DNA of 64,000 nucleotides. Origin: Bacteroidaceae bacterium (GTDB lineage: Bacteria; Bacteroidota; Bacteroidia; Bacteroidales; Bacteroidaceae). Made by a program: the position numbers and the translations under genes. A model generated the notes under the pieces. It saw nothing but the letters and a program-made list of their open reading frames with translations, did not search any database and had not been told where the DNA came from. How positions within the stretch are numbered: position 1 is the first letter of the stretch; each line of letters starts with the position of its first letter. The stretch lies in the NCBI GenBank assembly GCA_963666495.2, contig OY762866.2, positions 3,692,997-3,756,996 of the forward strand. Direction: 5' to 3'. Shown in pieces: positions 30,215-37,196 of the stretch.

Positions 30215-30250
30215 AAAGGCTCAGATGAATTTGTTCATCTGAGCCTTTTT
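30215..30250 (+). terminator. Terminator after PBP1A
   Basis: AAAGGCTCAGATGAA-TTTG-TTCATCTGAGCCTTTTT. Confidence 0.85.
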
Positions 30251-30447
30251 ATTATAGTTCTCAAATATTATCGGCAAAGGTACTGATCTACTTACTTTTA
30301 TTATGATGCGCCATCTGGATAATAAGATTTGTATAAAAGACCATCTTTCTTAAATTTGATTTATTATTGAATGAAATAAGAAACTATTGGTGTATGATTT
30401 CAATTTATTCGTCAATAAATAAAATCCATTGACGAATGGCTACTCAA

Positions 30448-30526
30448 ACTCCCGCCTGCAATTTTCAAAAGCAGGCGGGAGTTTGTTCAACATCCGGTTA
30501 CGTTTCTGAAAAAGCAGGCGGGATGT
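30448..30526. repeat. GCAGGCGGGA-core units in alternating orientation, about 22-bp period
   Basis: ACTCCCGCCTGC (30448), GCAGGCGGGAGT (30471), degenerate ACATCCGGTTAC (about 30490), GCAGGCGGGATG (30514). Confidence 0.65.
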
Positions 30527-30568
30527 TTTAGCATTGTACTTTTACGCTATCTTACAGAAAAAATAAAA

Positions 30569-30901
30569 TCATCCCTCACTCCCTCACTTTTCCTTTTAAC
30601 ATACTTAAGAATAGCATATTACTTAGTGATGGTAGCATTTTGAACCCTCACCAAACCATCACTTTTGGAGTCAACCTAATTTAGGACGAGACATTTTCGA
30701 GCTATATTTATCCAAATAGAATAAAACTCAGTCTAATATTGTTGCTCAAGACAATTTAAGCCTGAAATATGCAGATTGTGCTCAAAAGGTGAGGGTTATG
30801 TCTTTTGGTGATAGTTTGGTGAGGGTTCAAATCGCTACCATCACCTTATAATTAATTGTTATTTAGCTTATTAATCAAAATAGTGAGGGAGTGAGGGATG
30901 A
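30569..30901. mobile_element. MITE-like non-coding element with about 94-bp composite inverted arms (CCCTCAC/GTGAGGG cores)
   Basis: Perfect 20-bp outer inverted repeat (30569-30588 / 30882-30901), 37-bp spacers on both sides, and a 37-bp inner inverted repeat with 3 mismatches (30626-30662 / 30808-30844). Mobility is inferred only. Confidence 0.6.
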
Positions 30902-31223
30902 AATTAATTTTTAATTGAATAGTACCGAATAATGGTGCCTAATATTAATAATGATTGTCAGTGGCCTGTTTTTTCCGTCAATACATATTTGTTCAAGAAA
31001 CTTTTCTCACTAAAGTTATATATAGCAAAAGCTATATCCTGCCCAATCATTCATTCCAGGCTATTTTATTATGTCTTTTTTACTCTTTGAATAACGATTT
31101 ACTTGTCTCCTTAACTTCCTAAAAAGAACTATAGAAAATAAAAAGAACATATTTCTTTATATTAATGCAGTATAATATTTTGTACTTCGTTTATCTAATA
31201 AATAATTTTACTATTTTCATGAT

Positions 31224-31676
31224 ATGAAAAAGAAAAACACAACATGGCTGAATTTAGCAAATAAAGTTCTATCAGGAATGATGGTATTACTGGGATTTAA
31301 CGGTTGTTCCGGAGAAGCCCCGTGCATGTATGGTTCGCCTTACGCTTTGCATACTATTAAAGGAAAAGTAGAAAACAATTCCGGAACTGCAATAAAAGGA
31401 ATTCAAGTTATTTGCAACGCAAAGAATAGCTGGATTAAACCGGATACTTTGCTATCCAATCAAAATGGAGAATTTATTTTCAAGAGCGAGCATACTTTTA
31501 CCGAAGCTACTTATAAGCTTATCTGCAAAGACATTGATGGAGATACAAATGGTTCATATAAAAATGACTCTATTGAAGTAGAATTTAAAAAAAGTGACTT
31601 AAGCAATGGAAAAGATTGGTTTGAAGGAGAAGCTACAAAAAATGTGACGATAAAATTATCCGAAAATGATAAGTGA
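31224..31676 (+). CDS. Lipoprotein of the rSAM/lipoprotein system (TIGR04134-like)
   Basis: Signal peptide with FNGC lipobox, then SGEAPCMYGSPYA, IKGKV..IKGIQV, and DIDG..NGSY; overlaps the rSAM gene by 11 nt. Confidence 0.85.
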   Translation: MKKKNTTWLNLANKVLSGMMVLLGFNGCSGEAPCMYGSPYALHTIKGKVENNSGTAIKGIQVICNAKNSWIKPDTLLSNQNGEFIFKSEHTFTEATYKLICKDIDGDTNGSYKNDSIEVEFKKSDLSNGKDWFEGEATKNVTIKLSENDK

Positions 31677-32739
31677 GATAACTTTAAAAAAGCTCTTGGC
31701 ATTAGAAATAGCTCGCAAAATAAGGCATAACAAAATCAAATTACATCCCCTTCGCCAACTATTTTGGGAATGTACTTTACGATGCAATCTTTATTGCCGG
31801 CACTGTGGAAGTGATTGCAAAAAAACAGCATATCAAAAAGATATGCCATTGGCAGATTTCCTTGCGGTTATTGATTCTATATCTCCGCATGTTAATCCAT
31901 CAGAGGTATGTATTATCATAACCGGAGGTGAGCCATTAATGAGAGAAGACATTGAAGAATGTGGACTTGCACTCTACCATAAAGGTTTCCCTTGGGGAAT
32001 CGTAACAAACGGACTTTATCTTAGTCACAAACGTCTTGACTCATTACTGGCTTCCGGAATGCATTCTATTACAATAAGTCTGGATGGACTTGAAAAAGAG
32101 CATAATTGGATGCGAGGACATCCCGAAAGTTTTACCCGAGCAACAGAAGCTATTAAAATGGTTGCTTCTGAAAAAGACTTAAATTGGGATGTTGTTACGT
32201 GCATAAACCGTAAAAACTATAAAGATTTAGAAGAATTAAAAAACTATTTGATATCCATCGGAGTAAGAAATTGGCGAATATTCACAGTCTTTCCGGTAGG
32301 ACGAGCAGCAGAAGATCCGGAACTTCTACTCACTAATCAAGAATATACAGGCTTGATGGAATTTATAAAGCTGAGTCGCAAAGAAGGAAAAATAAAGATA
32401 AACTATGCATGCGAAGGCTTTCTCGGAAAATACGAAGGAGAAGTAAGAGATAATTTCTATTCGTGCGGAGCAGGTGTTAGTGTAGCTTCAATTCTGATTG
32501 ATGGCTCAATCTCTGCCTGTCCAAGTATCCGAAGCAATTTTTATCAAGGGAATATATATCGTGATAATTTTATGGAAATATGGAATAATCGATTTGAAAA
32601 CTTCCGTAACCGTGAATGGATGAAAAAAGATAAATGTGCCAAGTGCAATTACTTCCGCTATTGTGAAGGAAACGGAATGCATCTTCGCAATAATGAAGGA
32701 AAACTCCTTATATGTCATTATAACAAACTTCGAGATTAA
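31666..32739 (+). CDS. Radical SAM/SPASM enzyme (TIGR04133-like, rSAM/lipoprotein system)
   Basis: CNLYCRHC (CxxxCxxC), ITGGEPL, ISLDG; SPASM cysteines CGAG..ISACP..CAKCNYFRYCEG. Confidence 0.9.
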   Translation: MISEITLKKLLALEIARKIRHNKIKLHPLRQLFWECTLRCNLYCRHCGSDCKKTAYQKDMPLADFLAVIDSISPHVNPSEVCIIITGGEPLMREDIEECGLALYHKGFPWGIVTNGLYLSHKRLDSLLASGMHSITISLDGLEKEHNWMRGHPESFTRATEAIKMVASEKDLNWDVVTCINRKNYKDLEELKNYLISIGVRNWRIFTVFPVGRAAEDPELLLTNQEYTGLMEFIKLSRKEGKIKINYACEGFLGKYEGEVRDNFYSCGAGVSVASILIDGSISACPSIRSNFYQGNIYRDNFMEIWNNRFENFRNREWMKKDKCAKCNYFRYCEGNGMHLRNNEGKLLICHYNKLRD

Positions 32740-32764: not shown

Positions 32765-32812
32765 AGAAATCCCGCTCTCGCATTTTTATAATGTCAGAGC
32801 GGGATTCTTTTA
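32765..32812 (+). terminator. Terminator after the rSAM gene
   Basis: GAAATCCCGCTCT...AGAGCGGGATTC followed by TTTT. Confidence 0.75.
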
Positions 32813-33163: not shown

Positions 33164-34231
33164 ATGAAAAAAGCCTTAATTTCAGGTATAACCGGTCAGG
33201 ACGGTTCATTCTTAGCTGAATTTTTATTAAAAAAAGGATATGAAGTTCACGGCATTCTTCGCCGTTCTTCTTCTTTCAATACAGGACGCATCGAACATCT
33301 ATATTTTGATGAATGGGTACGCGATATGAAACAACAACGAACCATAAATCTTCATTATGGAGATATGACCGATTCCAGTTCTCTTATACGTATTATCCAA
33401 CAAGTACAACCAGACGAGATATATAATCTGGCAGCTCAAAGTCATGTAAAGGTAAGCTTTGATGTTCCTGAATATACAGCCGAAGCTGATGCTGTGGGTA
33501 CCCTCCGCATGCTGGAAGCTGTTCGTATTCTAGGCTTAGAAAATAAAACCAAAATATATCAGGCTTCTACTTCCGAACTTTTTGGTTTGGTGCAGGAAGT
33601 TCCACAAAAAGAAACTACACCTTTTTATCCACGCAGTCCATACGGAGTTGCTAAACAATACGGTTTTTGGATTACAAAGAATTATCGCGAATCTTACGGA
33701 ATGTTTGCTGTAAACGGAATCTTATTTAATCACGAAAGTGAAAGACGTGGAGAAACGTTTGTTACCAGAAAGATTTCTTTAGCTGTTGCCCGTATTAAAC
33801 AAGGTGTACAAGATAAGCTTTACATGGGTAACCTTGATTCACAACGTGACTGGGGATATGCAAGAGATTATGTAGAGTGTATGTGGTTAATTTTACAACA
33901 TGACACTCCAGAAGATTTTGTAATTGCTACCGGAGAAATGCATACCGTTCGAGAATTCTGTACGTTTGCTTTCAAAGAAGCAGATATTGAACTTCGTTGG
34001 GAAGGTGAAGGAGTTGATGAAAAAGGTATTGACGTAGCCACTGGTCGTGTATTAGTAGAAGTGGATCCTAAATATTTCCGTCCGGCTGAGGTTGAACAAT
34101 TATTAGGAGACCCTACAAAAGCAAAAACATTACTTGGCTGGAATCCTACACAAACATCATTCCCTGAGTTGGTAAAGATCATGGTACAACATGATATGGA
34201 AAAAGTCAGAAAGTTGATCGCAAATAAATAA
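33164..34231 (+). CDS. gmd: GDP-mannose 4,6-dehydratase
   Basis: [51 protein letters not shown]. Confidence 0.97.
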
Positions 34232-35319
34232 TGATGAAAAAAGATGCAAAGATTTTTGTAGCCGGACACCGTGGACTTGTAGGTTCGGCTATTTTAAATA
34301 ATCTGAAGAAAAAAGGATATACTAATTTTGTTCTTCGAACTCATAAAGAATTAGATTTATGTAATCAGGCCGCTGTTACAGAATTCTTTGATCAAGAGAA
34401 GCCTGAATATGTATTTCTGGCTGCCGCACATGTAGGCGGGATTGTAGCGAATAGCCTTTACAGAGCTGATTTTATTTATCGCAATCTGGAAATTCAGAAT
34501 AATGTAATATACAATTCATTCCGTACAGGAGTAAAGAAGTTGCTGTTTCTTGGCAGTACTTGCATTTATCCGGGAAATGCTCCTCAACCAATGAAAGAAG
34601 ATTGCCTGCTTTCTTCTGAATTGGAATATACCAATGAGCCTTATGCATTGGCAAAAATTGCCGGACTGAAAATGTGCGAAAGCTTTAACCTGCAATATGG
34701 AACAAACTATATAGCAGTAATGCCAACTAACCTTTATGGTCCGAATGATAATTTCAATTTGGAACGCAGTCATGTATTGCCGGCTTTAATCAGAAAGGCA
34801 CACTTAGGCAAACAGCTAATGGCCGGTAACTGGGATGAAATCCGCAAGGATTTTAAGACTGCCCCTGTGGAGGGTGTAGATGGAAATACCAGTCAGGAAG
34901 CTATTCTTGAAAAACTAAATAAATACGGTATTACCCAATCTACAAACGGAAAAGTAAATGTTGAGATATGGGGTACAGGTGCTCCCCTACGCGAATTCCT
35001 TTGGAGCGAAGATATGGCCGATGCTTGTGTCTTTATTATGGAAAATGTAGATTTTGCAGATCTGAAAGGAAATAGCAAGGAAGTACGTAATTGCCATATT
35101 AACATAGGTACAGGAAAAGAGCTTTCTATCAAAGAACTTGCTTACCTGGTTGCAAAGAAAGTTGGCTTCGAGGGAAACATTGTTTTCAATTCCGATAAAC
35201 CGGACGGAACAATGCGCAAGCTTACTGACCCTTCTAAACTTCACAGCCTAGGCTGGAAACACAAAGTTGAACTAGAAGATGGCATTGCTATGATATACAA
35301 TTGGTATATTAATAAATAA
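34231..35319 (+). CDS. fcl: GDP-L-fucose synthase
   Basis: [63 protein letters not shown]; overlaps the gmd stop. Confidence 0.96.
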
Positions 35320-35436: not shown

Positions 35437-36144
35437 TCAACAACCACTAAGCAATTTGTTTTTAAGGATAGCTTCCAGCACTTTTTCTTTATAAGTCCTT
35501 GATATTGGAATTTTATATTTATCTATGCCAAGCATATTCCCTTCAATATTCAATACCTTTTCTACGTTTATAATGAAAGATTTATGCGTTTGAATAAAAA
35601 GCTGTTCAGGAAGATTCTCCAATATAAGCCTAAGAGTTGAATGAGTTATAACCTTTCCCGAAATTGTTTGAATAGCCACATAATTCTCTATCCCCTCAAC
35701 ATATAATATATCCTTGAAAAAAATCTTTTCCAGTTTCTGATTCGCTTTTACAAAGAAATAATCAGGAGATTTTGATGCCGTTTGATTTACAATCACGTCA
35801 TACGCCTTATTCACAGCTTTCAGAAATCGTTCAAAAGAAATTGGTTTAAGCAAATAATCTACAACTTCCAGATCATATCCCTTTATTGCATACTGTTCGT
35901 AAGCACTGGTAATAATAACCTTGGGAGGGTTAACCAAAGAGTTTAGCAAATCAATACCCGACATATATGGCATTTCAATATCCAGAAACAACAAATCTAC
36001 TTGCTGAGTTTTCAAGGCGTTGCTTAACTGTATAGCATCTTCGCAAACGCCTACTAGTTCAAGAAAATCAAGTCTTTCAACATAGCTTTGAATTCCATTT
36101 CTTGCTATCGGTTCATCATCGGTTATAATACATTTAATTTTCAT
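35437..36144 (-). CDS. LytTR-family response regulator
   Basis: Receiver DDE, FLDIEMP and YLLKP; LytTR domain ILYVEG..NYV..FIQTHKSFIIN..IPISR. Confidence 0.95.
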   Translation of the reverse strand: MKIKCIITDDEPIARNGIQSYVERLDFLELVGVCEDAIQLSNALKTQQVDLLFLDIEMPYMSGIDLLNSLVNPPKVIITSAYEQYAIKGYDLEVVDYLLKPISFERFLKAVNKAYDVIVNQTASKSPDYFFVKANQKLEKIFFKDILYVEGIENYVAIQTISGKVITHSTLRLILENLPEQLFIQTHKSFIINVEKVLNIEGNMLGIDKYKIPISRTYKEKVLEAILKNKLLSGC

Positions 36145-36161
36145 TCTGGCTATTATTCAAA

Positions 36162-37196
36162 TTAAAACTCAATCATCAAATTTGCCTTATAAGAGTCAGC
36201 AGTCTTAGAAATCAAAAGTTTATGCTTACCCGGATATAACAGTTCAAGCCTTCTTCTTAGATTTTCCAGCCCAATTCCACCTATTTTCGAAGCGGGAAAA
36301 GGAGTTTGAGGTATTGCATTCACAACTTCAAACAACAGTCTATTCCCATCAAGTTTACCATCTATCTTTATCCAGTACTCCCCTCCTACATATTTCAATG
36401 CATTCTCAACCAATGGAAACAAAAGCAAAGAATGGATCTTTTGATTTTTTAGCTTTGGATCAAAAGATATATCCAGTTTAAGACTCTCTTTCATCCGTAT
36501 CTTTTGCAAATCTATATAAGTAAGCAAAAAATTAATTTCTTGCTCAATAGTCACTGCCTGATTAACATCATAGAGCTGATAGCGGAGCAAATCCGACAAT
36601 TGTTCAATCGTTTTTCTTGGAATTTCATTCTTCTCGTCTATCTGGAAATAAATGGTATTTAATGCATTGAATAAAAAATGAGGATGGAACTGAGCTTTTA
36701 AAAATTTCAGTTCTGTTTCAATCTGCATATTTTTTATTTTCTGAGTCTGTAGTTTCTGGTCAATATATGCATTAAGAATCTGATTTCCTCTAAAAAGAGA
36801 ATAGATGATAATAAGCACCAAAAGAAAAATTATATTGGCAATAGTAATATCATCTATCCCCAGAGGATCATTTATCAGATAATGTATTAGCACCAGACAA
36901 GGATTGAATACAACAATTCCTGCAGCCAAAACCATAAGATATTCCGAAAGAAACATCTTAAATGTCAGCCTTCCGGTGTGTTTACTATTTCTTTCTAACA
37001 AATAACTGATAATAAACTGGCACAGATACGCAATTATTATTGCAAAACCAAATTCAATGAGGTTCCATTCCAAAGGTCGTTCCCAAAATTTGTAACCGGT
37101 AGGAGTATCACTTACCAGCCGAATACCTGCCATTACAACGGCTGCAAAAATCAATGGAACAATCCAGAACCAGATATTATATTTCTTCGTTTTCAT
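36162..37196 (-). CDS. LytS-type sensor histidine kinase
   Basis: N-terminal TM helices; ELKFLKAQFHPHFLFNALN, LSDLLRY, PLVENALK, GIGLEN..RRL. Confidence 0.92.
   Translation of the reverse strand: MKTKKYNIWFWIVPLIFAAVVMAGIRLVSDTPTGYKFWERPLEWNLIEFGFAIIIAYLCQFIISYLLERNSKHTGRLTFKMFLSEYLMVLAAGIVVFNPCLVLIHYLINDPLGIDDITIANIIFLLVLIIIYSLFRGNQILNAYIDQKLQTQKIKNMQIETELKFLKAQFHPHFLFNALNTIYFQIDEKNEIPRKTIEQLSDLLRYQLYDVNQAVTIEQEINFLLTYIDLQKIRMKESLKLDISFDPKLKNQKIHSLLLFPLVENALKYVGGEYWIKIDGKLDGNRLLFEVVNAIPQTPFPASKIGGIGLENLRRRLELLYPGKHKLLISKTADSYKANLMIEF

Follow-up and report, generated by a model that had tools for sequence, protein, structure and literature searches.

A lipoprotein and its radical SAM/SPASM enzyme in a Bacteroidaceae genome: a conserved Tyr-Gly motif as predicted modification site, possibly for tyramine splicing

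Introduction

What does a radical S-adenosylmethionine (SAM) enzyme with a SPASM domain do to the lipoprotein encoded beside it? The question is raised by a two-gene unit lying within a 64,000-nt stretch of the genome of a Bacteroidaceae bacterium (assembly GCA_963666495.2, contig OY762866.2, positions 3,692,997 to 3,756,996; hereafter referred to as the window), in which a lipoprotein open reading frame (ORF) and a radical SAM/SPASM ORF are both encoded on the forward strand. An earlier reading of this DNA (hereafter referred to as the original prediction) had proposed that the enzyme splices the lipoprotein backbone at a Met-Tyr-Gly motif. The observation behind this proposal proved to be real; on comparison of the sequences, the assignment of substrate and site appears strong, and the splicing chemistry plausible. 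The two genes are:

31224..31676, forward strand: lipoprotein gene, 150 amino acids, TIGR04134, presumed substrate (TIGR04134 profile, AlphaFold 2 [AF2] model, Foldseek)
31666..32739, forward strand: radical SAM/SPASM enzyme gene, 357 amino acids, TIGR04133 (TIGR04133 profile, Pfam, AF2 model)

Family membership and distribution

The enzyme scored 610.4 bits against TIGR04133 (cut-off 425, profile positions 1-349 of 350) and the adjoining lipoprotein 139.3 bits against TIGR04134 (cut-off 39.8). Both proteins are therefore well above the curated cut-offs of the radical SAM/lipoprotein system to which the original prediction had assigned them. These two models are "hypothetical equivalogs" of NCBIfam/TIGRFAMs, designated rSAM_w_lipo and lipo_with_rSAM, and NCBIfam release 20.0 assigns no function to either. 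Of the 401 Bacteroidales genomes sampled, 85 contain an enzyme above the TIGR04133 cut-off, and at E ≤ 1e-60 the family is matched in 67 of 236 genera, a patchy distribution of the kind that would fit an accessory function. Both families are also represented in Bacteroides thetaiotaomicron VPI-5482. The present genome belongs to Bacteroides luti DSM 26991 or to a strain almost identical to it (99% protein identity in L032). The profile of the substrate N-terminus was matched by 2084 representatives (clusters at 50% identity) in a global library.

A literature search yielded no description of the chemistry of TIGR04133/TIGR04134 or of its link to YG, and the sole mention of TIGR04134 found uses that name, by mistake, for the model of the type B C-terminal domain of the type IX secretion system (PMC11611037). 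Outside that search lies the study by Scott et al. 2022 (Chem 8:2659), summarised in PMC10849128 as a survey of YG-rich neighbours of radical SAM/SPASM enzymes, covering 189 genera, with 27 enzyme-substrate pairs confirmed. It is possible, if rather doubtful, that this survey already covers the TIGR04133 family. The gene pair is already known as a computational family, and no report of its chemistry was found in the searchable literature.

A Tyr-Gly motif in the tether of the lipoprotein

The lipoprotein comprises three parts:

31224..31307, forward strand: signal peptide with an N-x(10-11)-LLGF element, ending at the lipobox Cys28 (codon 31305-31307); candidate leader for the enzyme (alignment conservation)
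31326..31340, forward strand: M35-Y36-G37-S38-P39 (x-Y-G-x-P), predicted modification site; Tyr36 codon 31329-31331 (motif conservation)
31341..31658, forward strand: mature beta-sandwich, residues 40-145, with a D103-I-D-G-x-x-N-G110 loop (AF2 model, Foldseek, alignment)

Its N-terminus, MKKKNTTWLNLANKVLSGMMVLLGFNG-C28-SGEAP-C34-M35-Y36-G37-S38-P39-Y40, matches exactly the sequence originally read as lipid-Cys-SGEAP-C-M-Y-G-SPY. With an MKKK n-region, a hydrophobic helix (residues 4-22) and a GFNG-C28 lipobox, the protein displays the features of a signal peptidase II (SPII) substrate and is predicted to be an SPII-processed lipoprotein of 150 amino acids. In the AF2 model (mean predicted local distance difference test score [pLDDT] 85.4), the signal helix (4-22) is followed by a disordered, low-confidence linker (23-39) containing both Cys28 and M35-Y36-G37, and then by a seven-stranded beta-sandwich (40-145). 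The motif is thus located, as had been suggested, in the tether near the membrane anchor, the folded domain beginning only at residue 40. The sandwich grouped in Foldseek with transthyretin, CarboxypepD_reg and CnaB-like modules, among them teneurin domains and the N-terminal extension of SusC, and the Pfam CarboxypepD_reg match was sub-threshold; the modelled fold suggests no enzymatic function for the lipoprotein.

Loci were gathered around enzymes of three groups: the main TIGR04133 clade (n = 35), a second TIGR04133 subclade (457-490 bits; n = 20) and a sister clade scoring below the cut-off (330-370 bits; n = 11). An adjacent lipoprotein with YG was found at 35/35 main-clade loci (YG.P at 34/35), its gene almost always directly upstream of the enzyme gene. 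The second subclade had a FQAC-YG-[TAPV]-P partner at 17 of its 20 loci, with ACYG lacking the Pro at one more, and (I/V)(L/F)AAC-YG-x-P partners were present at at least 8 of the 11 sister-clade loci. In these last two groups, the lipobox Cys directly precedes Tyr-Gly (L124-L143, e.g. FQAC-YGTPQ; L098-L108, e.g. ILAAC-YGTP). All 57 motif instances contained both Tyr and Gly, and 56 had Pro at +3, these three residues being invariant in alignment A3, whereas the residue before Tyr varied (E25, M10, C8, L5, V3). The consensus, x-Y-G-[TSVACM]-P-x-A, has mostly Ala at +5, an aromatic residue at +7 and no conserved Arg. The original prediction had named a lack of YG conservation among homologous lipoproteins as the finding that would speak against it; since YG is conserved, it survives on this count. 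Among the 2084 library matches, 148 of the 149 top representatives examined carried YG.P, with E (126) or M (33) as X, in a sample biased by the presence of the motif in the profile itself.

These counts also bear on the alternative raised in the original prediction, that of a Cys-based thioether of the sactipeptide or ranthipeptide type formed via Cys34 or Cys28. Cys34 lies two residues before Tyr36, the P-C-M-Y-G sequence is kept in close homologues, and SkfB is a good fold match of the enzyme. However, a Cys at -2 is present in only 12 of the 57 motif instances, which makes a thioether unlikely, and the only Cys of many partners is that of the lipobox, the thiol of which is required for diacylglyceryl transfer. 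The sactipeptide and ranthipeptide maturase models StsB (71 bits) and PapB (66 bits) also score below the splicease-type models. A conserved donor Cys being missing, this alternative was abandoned as very improbable.

Pairwise identity is 70% in the motif region, 38-40% in the signal peptide and 30% in the mature domain. Partners whose mature parts are unrelated also contain the motif (helical proteins L091, L095 and L097; peptides of 60-100 amino acids L083, L096 and L092), and L080, L090 and L094 have it in tandem copies. Conversely, it is absent from the second TIGR04134 paralogue of the genome (151 amino acids), beside which there is no radical SAM gene:

G000:C1:2022073-2022456 (locus L002 1489-1944), outside the window, reverse strand: enzyme-less TIGR04134 paralogue (TIGR04134, 80.6 bits)

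This paralogue keeps the beta-sandwich residues and the DIDG..NG loop, and reads KPIVQNYAEHTIKG, with no YG, no LLGF and a different signal peptide; on its sequence, it can be regarded as a natural negative control. The occurrence of the motif with unrelated mature parts and its absence from the enzyme-less paralogue, along with the co-occurrence and the rarity of YG.P given below, link it with the enzyme and not with the fold.

Co-occurrence was assessed with profile A3 (signal peptide plus motif, 52 positions; strong match, E ≤ 2e-5) in the 401 Bacteroidales genomes. Strong matches were obtained in 47 genomes, 47/47 of which encode the enzyme, and in 0/307 enzyme-less genomes (Fisher P = 3e-35), in a test that makes no correction for phylogeny and uses a profile trained on sequences from about 30 of these 47 genomes. 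Some matches were unlinked to the enzyme gene (G570, G566, G442, G317, G688 and G119). Three to five YG lipoprotein genes, tandem or scattered, were seen in L003 (G119:C21) and G075, on contigs other than that of the single enzyme gene, and one of the scattered copies reads MYACPYA, with Tyr-Ala replacing Tyr-Gly. Within the genome of the present locus, YG.P lies no more than 60 residues from the lipobox Cys in 2 of 837 lipoproteins, a set obtained by crude prediction, and one of the two is the lipoprotein of the pair. The other candidate (674 amino acids; YYGLPY about 46 residues past the lipobox Cys, no LGF signal) was judged to be a chance match.

The same data address the possibility that the lipoprotein is not a substrate, and serves instead as a partner or product carrier of an enzyme acting on a small molecule (e.g. 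a tetrapyrrole, as for AhbD/NirJ) or on another protein, with YG.P functioning in sorting, folding or binding. The top non-self hidden Markov model (HMM) scores of the enzyme are indeed those of the heme-pathway proteins AhbD and NirJ2, and most partners share a homologous beta-sandwich with the conserved D-I-D-G-x-x-N-G loop. Nevertheless, the motif and signal peptide are kept even where the mature region of the partner is unrelated, as well as in the peptides of 60-100 amino acids, the enzyme-less paralogue has lost the motif and not the fold-defining residues, and motif proteins are confined to enzyme-carrying genomes. Moreover, once exported, the lipoprotein could no longer be a stable partner of an enzyme that is cytoplasmic. 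We consider a non-substrate role improbable; the conservation pattern argues that the lipoprotein is very probably the substrate of the enzyme, and YG its site of action.

The loop itself (D-I-D-G-D-T-N-G, residues 103-110, window 31530-31553) is kept in the partners of both the main and sister clades, as well as in the paralogue without an enzyme, and resembles a Ca2+- or ligand-binding loop within the sandwich.

The signal peptide as a candidate leader

Apart from the motif, only the signal peptide is conserved in the substrates, through N-x(10-11)-LLGF before the Cys, and G24 and C28 are nearly invariant (alignments A2 and A3). LG[FLYIW] precedes the Cys in 26 of the 837 predicted lipoproteins of the genome, but in most enzyme-linked partners, and each enzyme subclade is associated with its own type of signal peptide (LLGF..C, GGLSF...FQAC or TGSFS..AAC). 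As the only other conserved regions of the substrate lie in the signal peptide, we infer that this peptide acts as the leader for the enzyme, which would recognise the helix N-x10-LLGF. Since the enzyme has no signal peptide of its own and depends on SAM and Fe-S clusters, it would have to modify the protein before Sec export. It would act on the newly synthesised pre-lipoprotein, with translational coupling helping it to find its substrate.

The destination of the product also required reconsideration. Surface lipoproteins of Bacteroidota carry an acidic export signal directly past the Cys, K-(D/E)2 or Q-A-(D/E)2 (PMC5080379). The C-SGEAP sequence contains one acidic residue and no export signal of the K-(D/E)2 type, and the description of the protein as a surface lipoprotein in the original prediction was not upheld. 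Two or more acidic residues just past the Cys were present in 9/37 main-clade partners and 0/8 sister-clade partners. To judge from this region, the lipoprotein is probably oriented towards the periplasm and not exposed at the cell surface.

Features and fold of the enzyme

Two cysteine-containing regions of the enzyme were delimited:

31783..31806, forward strand: C40-N-L-Y-C44-R-H-C47 radical SAM cluster motif (invariant in 48/48 aligned homologues)
32410..32715, forward strand: SPASM region with seven conserved Cys for two auxiliary clusters (homologue alignment)

The enzyme matched the Pfam domains Radical_SAM (PF04055) and SPASM (PF13186; residues 267-328). The CxxxCxxC motif reported initially corresponds to C40-x3-C44-x2-C47, and the SPASM cysteines to residues 249, 267, 285, 324, 327, 333 and 350, all of which are kept in 34/34 main-clade and 11/11 sister-clade enzymes. 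The AF2 model (mean pLDDT 91.2) comprises an N-terminal helix of 20 residues (7-26), a radical SAM barrel and a SPASM domain, and contains no winged-helix RiPP recognition element (RRE; RiPP, ribosomally synthesised and post-translationally modified peptide). On its sequence, the enzyme is a cytoplasmic protein with a single SAM-cleaving cluster, in addition to two auxiliary [4Fe-4S] clusters.

Among solved structures in the PDB, the best fold match was anSMEcpe, an anaerobic sulfatase-maturating enzyme (anSME; template modelling [TM] score 0.72, E = 2e-14), followed by SkfB, PqqE and SuiB, with ChlB at rank 21 (TM 0.69); no splicease was present among the PDB sequence matches. An anSME modifies a short motif in full-length sulfatases in the cytoplasm before their export, and provides a helpful precedent as a SPASM enzyme lacking an RRE. 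If the present enzyme, likewise before export, carried out a two-electron oxidation of the formylglycine type on one of the side chains of the motif, this would be in keeping with the fold match and with the common properties of the two enzymes, both of which have about 360 residues, lack an RRE and would act on proteins that are later exported. However, the lipoprotein motif does not contain the sequence targeted by anSME, (C/S)-x-(P/A)-x-R, and its residue at +2 is often V, A or M and unable to give formylglycine; TIGR03942, the model for anSME, is missing from the 25 best NCBIfam matches of the enzyme. Such an oxidation is slightly less probable still than a thioether, and both readings were rejected on the basis of motif conservation.

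Candidate chemistries at the motif

A family-wide invariant Y-G preceded by a variable X is the pattern that tyramine splicing predicts, and an invariant Gly right after an aromatic residue is a hallmark of splice sites. As stated in the original prediction and found in the literature, spliceases remove C8H9NO (135.06 Da) at XYG, generating protease-inhibiting ketoamides (PMC11626197, PMC11414181). Both MYG and LYG are proven splice sites, and the binary splicease systems contain no Y/RRE protein, relying instead on a leader helix (PMC11414181, PMC11626197, PMC9811515). The signal peptide of the present lipoprotein is a conserved helix in the AF2 model and alignment, and no Y/RRE gene or domain was seen at the locus. 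The best peptide-maturase models for the enzyme are TIGR04103 (PlpX family; 120.9 bits) and TIGR03913 (116.4 bits).

Several observations weigh against splicing. The score of 120.9 bits is far below the TIGR04103 cut-off of 725 that defines the PlpX family (TIGR04103 / IPR026482), and by HMM the enzyme is not a member of that family. TIGR04103 is, moreover, outscored by AhbD (137.7 bits), TIGR04053 (131.6 bits) and NirJ2 (128.7 bits). Sequence alone, as judged by HMM scores, does not place the enzyme among the spliceases, and the case for splicing is therefore carried mainly by the substrate motif. In addition, the commonest residue before Tyr across the family is Glu, and the acidic DYG site is left unspliced by RcsX (PMC11626197). 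Finally, the near-invariant Pro at +3 is not required by the splicing mechanism and is left unexplained by it.

The same Y-G-x-P unit could be the target of another radical reaction: a three-residue cyclophane linking the Tyr ring to the C-beta of the +2 residue (as in the ChlB/XyeB triceptides), a Tyr C-C or C-O cross-link, beta-hydroxylation or epimerisation. The invariant positions, Y, G and P, go beyond XYG alone and the enzyme is not a PlpX-family member, both of which would suit a Tyr-directed reaction other than splicing. The cyclophane, in particular, is consistent with a +2 residue that always has a C-beta (T, S, V, A, C, M or P), with the good fold match to the triceptide synthase ChlB (TM 0.69) and with the tandem motif repeats, which are typical of triceptide precursors too. 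A Tyr-centred cross-link to the +2 residue would fit the motif almost as well as splicing. By contrast, the Gly directly after Tyr is invariant here, and we know of no requirement for Gly after the aromatic residue in cyclophane motifs; no triceptide, FxsB or XyeB model was found among the 25 best NCBIfam matches of the enzyme, which do include splicease-type models. We rate these other Tyr-directed reactions, taken together, as unlikely, though well above the thioether, anSME-like and non-substrate readings.

A search of 401 Bacteroidota genomes with TIGR04103 identified no member above the cut-off, and only TIGR03913-like enzymes beside PYG peptides. In two other Bacteroidota genomes (L112 and L113), a radical SAM/SPASM enzyme of about 480 amino acids (TIGR03913, 531 bits; TIGR04103, 424 bits) adjoins a 58-amino-acid DUF1843 peptide with the N-terminus MGIMMPYGAA, DUF1843 being treated as of unknown function in PMC10994174. 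This is a further case of a splicease-like enzyme with a YG-bearing partner. For the L112 enzyme, TIGR04133 was the third-best family (169 bits), above AhbD, a reciprocal match that speaks for splicing.

Tyramine splicing is, from the motif, the most likely chemistry, although we hold it tentatively, doubt slightly outweighing confidence. The enzyme would then cut a tyramine equivalent (C8H9NO, -135.06 Da) out of Tyr36 within M35-Y36-G37-S38-P39, in the flexible tether between Cys28 and the beta-sandwich, and rejoin the backbone, Met35 becoming an alpha-keto-beta-methionine ketoamide. After export, the modified precursor would receive its lipid at Cys28 and be cut by signal peptidase II, and the mature product would be a small membrane-anchored beta-sandwich with an electrophilic ketoamide placed six residues away from the anchor. 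With somewhat more doubt, the whole of TIGR04133 may constitute a Bacteroidales-wide branch of tyramine spliceases, with full-size lipoprotein substrates, a Sec/SPII signal peptide as RiPP-style leader, cytoplasmic splicing before export and lipid-anchored alpha-ketoamides as products. If spliced, the substrates of two subclades would carry the ketoamide/beta-amino acid on the lipidated Cys itself. The original prediction had envisaged a tethered protease trap. This role drew no support from the gene neighbourhoods, which are not conserved, and the position of the motif directly after the lipidated Cys in two large subclades would make it an awkward place for bait, hardly accessible to proteases. 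The probability left after the readings named here belongs to reactions that we have not thought of.

Transcription unit and genomic surroundings

The reading frames of the two genes share 11 nt (31666-31676), as originally described. The noncoding elements delimiting the unit are:

31092..31223, forward strand: conserved 5' region of the lipoprotein gene, presumed to contain the promoter and 5' untranslated region (identity to locus L033 of a metagenome-assembled genome)
about 32765..32808, forward strand: intrinsic-terminator-like hairpin followed by a U-rich tail, closing the two-gene unit (-25.4 kcal/mol)

The hairpin has a z-score of -6.83, with 0/200 shuffles equally stable, and was overlooked by a simple terminator scan because of its long loop; together with its U-rich tail, it bears out the claim that the pair has its own terminator. 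The PBP1A gene upstream of the pair ends with a separate terminator at 30215-30248, a perfect 15-bp stem that scores as a terminator on both strands and may therefore be bidirectional. The pair is predicted to form a self-contained two-gene operon. The sequencing runs containing the locus are DNA and metagenome runs only.

The spacer between this terminator and the lipoprotein gene (30249-31223) is AT-rich and unusually long (about 1 kb), and contains no ORF of more than 55 amino acids. The last 130 nt or so before the lipoprotein ATG are 85-97% identical to the related locus L033, whereas the remainder of the intergenic region of about 1 kb has 68% identity overall, with an indel; a segment of about 200 nt has been replaced at about 30890-31090, the flanking genes being 92-94% identical. 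A regulatory RNA in this spacer was rejected as a candidate, given the absence of any Rfam match and the poor conservation of the spacer. A sigma-70 scan upstream of the lipoprotein gene performed no better than shuffles, and 31092..31223 contains no perfect Bacteroides -7 box (TAnnTTTG), the sole such box of the spacer (TAAATTTG) being located at 30351, 873 nt 5' of the ATG.

The neighbours of the pair encode a CDF cation exporter, PBP1A, a GDP-mannose dehydratase, a GDP-fucose synthase and a LytTR two-component pair, all unrelated to it. The gmd and fcl genes for GDP-L-fucose synthesis lie downstream (33164-35319, forward strand), followed on the opposite strand by a LytTR response regulator and a LytS-type histidine kinase (35437-37196, reverse strand). 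Neither set is conserved beside the pair in other genomes. No PqqD/RRE gene was found among the neighbouring genes, in agreement with the original prediction.

Significance

The present locus is an ordinary member of a widespread family, and the interest of the assignment lies in that family. If Tyr36 is spliced, beta-amino-acid ketoamides would be a regular modification of envelope proteins, extending beyond secreted peptide natural products, and would occur in roughly one in five Bacteroidales from the gut, the rumen and the environment. The signal peptide would provide a natural example of an export signal doubling as a maturase leader, and the compact, RRE-free enzyme with its tag of about seven residues (x-Y-G-x-P-x-A) could be of use in protein engineering. 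Even with another chemistry, this is a large, sharply defined and easily testable family, with its site of action pinned to one tyrosine.

Comparison with known systems

Within the TIGR04133/TIGR04134 pairs, the locus is typical, with nothing to set it apart. The tyramine spliceases (PlpX/PcpX with a Y protein; the binary RhaX, RcsX and RasX; TIGR04103) are likewise radical SAM/SPASM enzymes encoded beside an X-Tyr-Gly substrate. PlpX and RcsX splice MYG, the sequence also present here, and the binary spliceases resemble the present pair in having no RRE protein and a conserved N-terminal helix in the substrate, here a candidate leader. The differences lie mostly in the substrate. Splicease leaders are of the Nif11/NHLP type, whereas the substrate here is a full-size lipoprotein with a Sec/SPII signal peptide as its presumed leader; Pro at +3 is nearly invariant in the present family, unlike in the splicease substrates, and the X residue is the lipidated Cys itself in two subclades. 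Splicease products are released, whereas the product of the present pair would remain attached to the membrane.

The TIGR03913 "GDL motif peptide-associated" maturases, as at L112 and L113, are also radical SAM/SPASM enzymes with a small partner, a DUF1843 peptide with a conserved N-terminal P-Y-G, and by HMM they lie between TIGR04103 and TIGR04133. Their partner is, however, a cytoplasmic helical peptide without a signal peptide, and the enzyme, at about 480 amino acids, has a C-terminal extension. The closest solved fold is that of anSME (PDB 4k36-4k39), whose conversion of Cys/Ser to formylglycine cannot apply to the present motif. This enzyme is similar in size and has a full SPASM domain and no RRE, but differs from the present enzyme in its target motif and sequence family.

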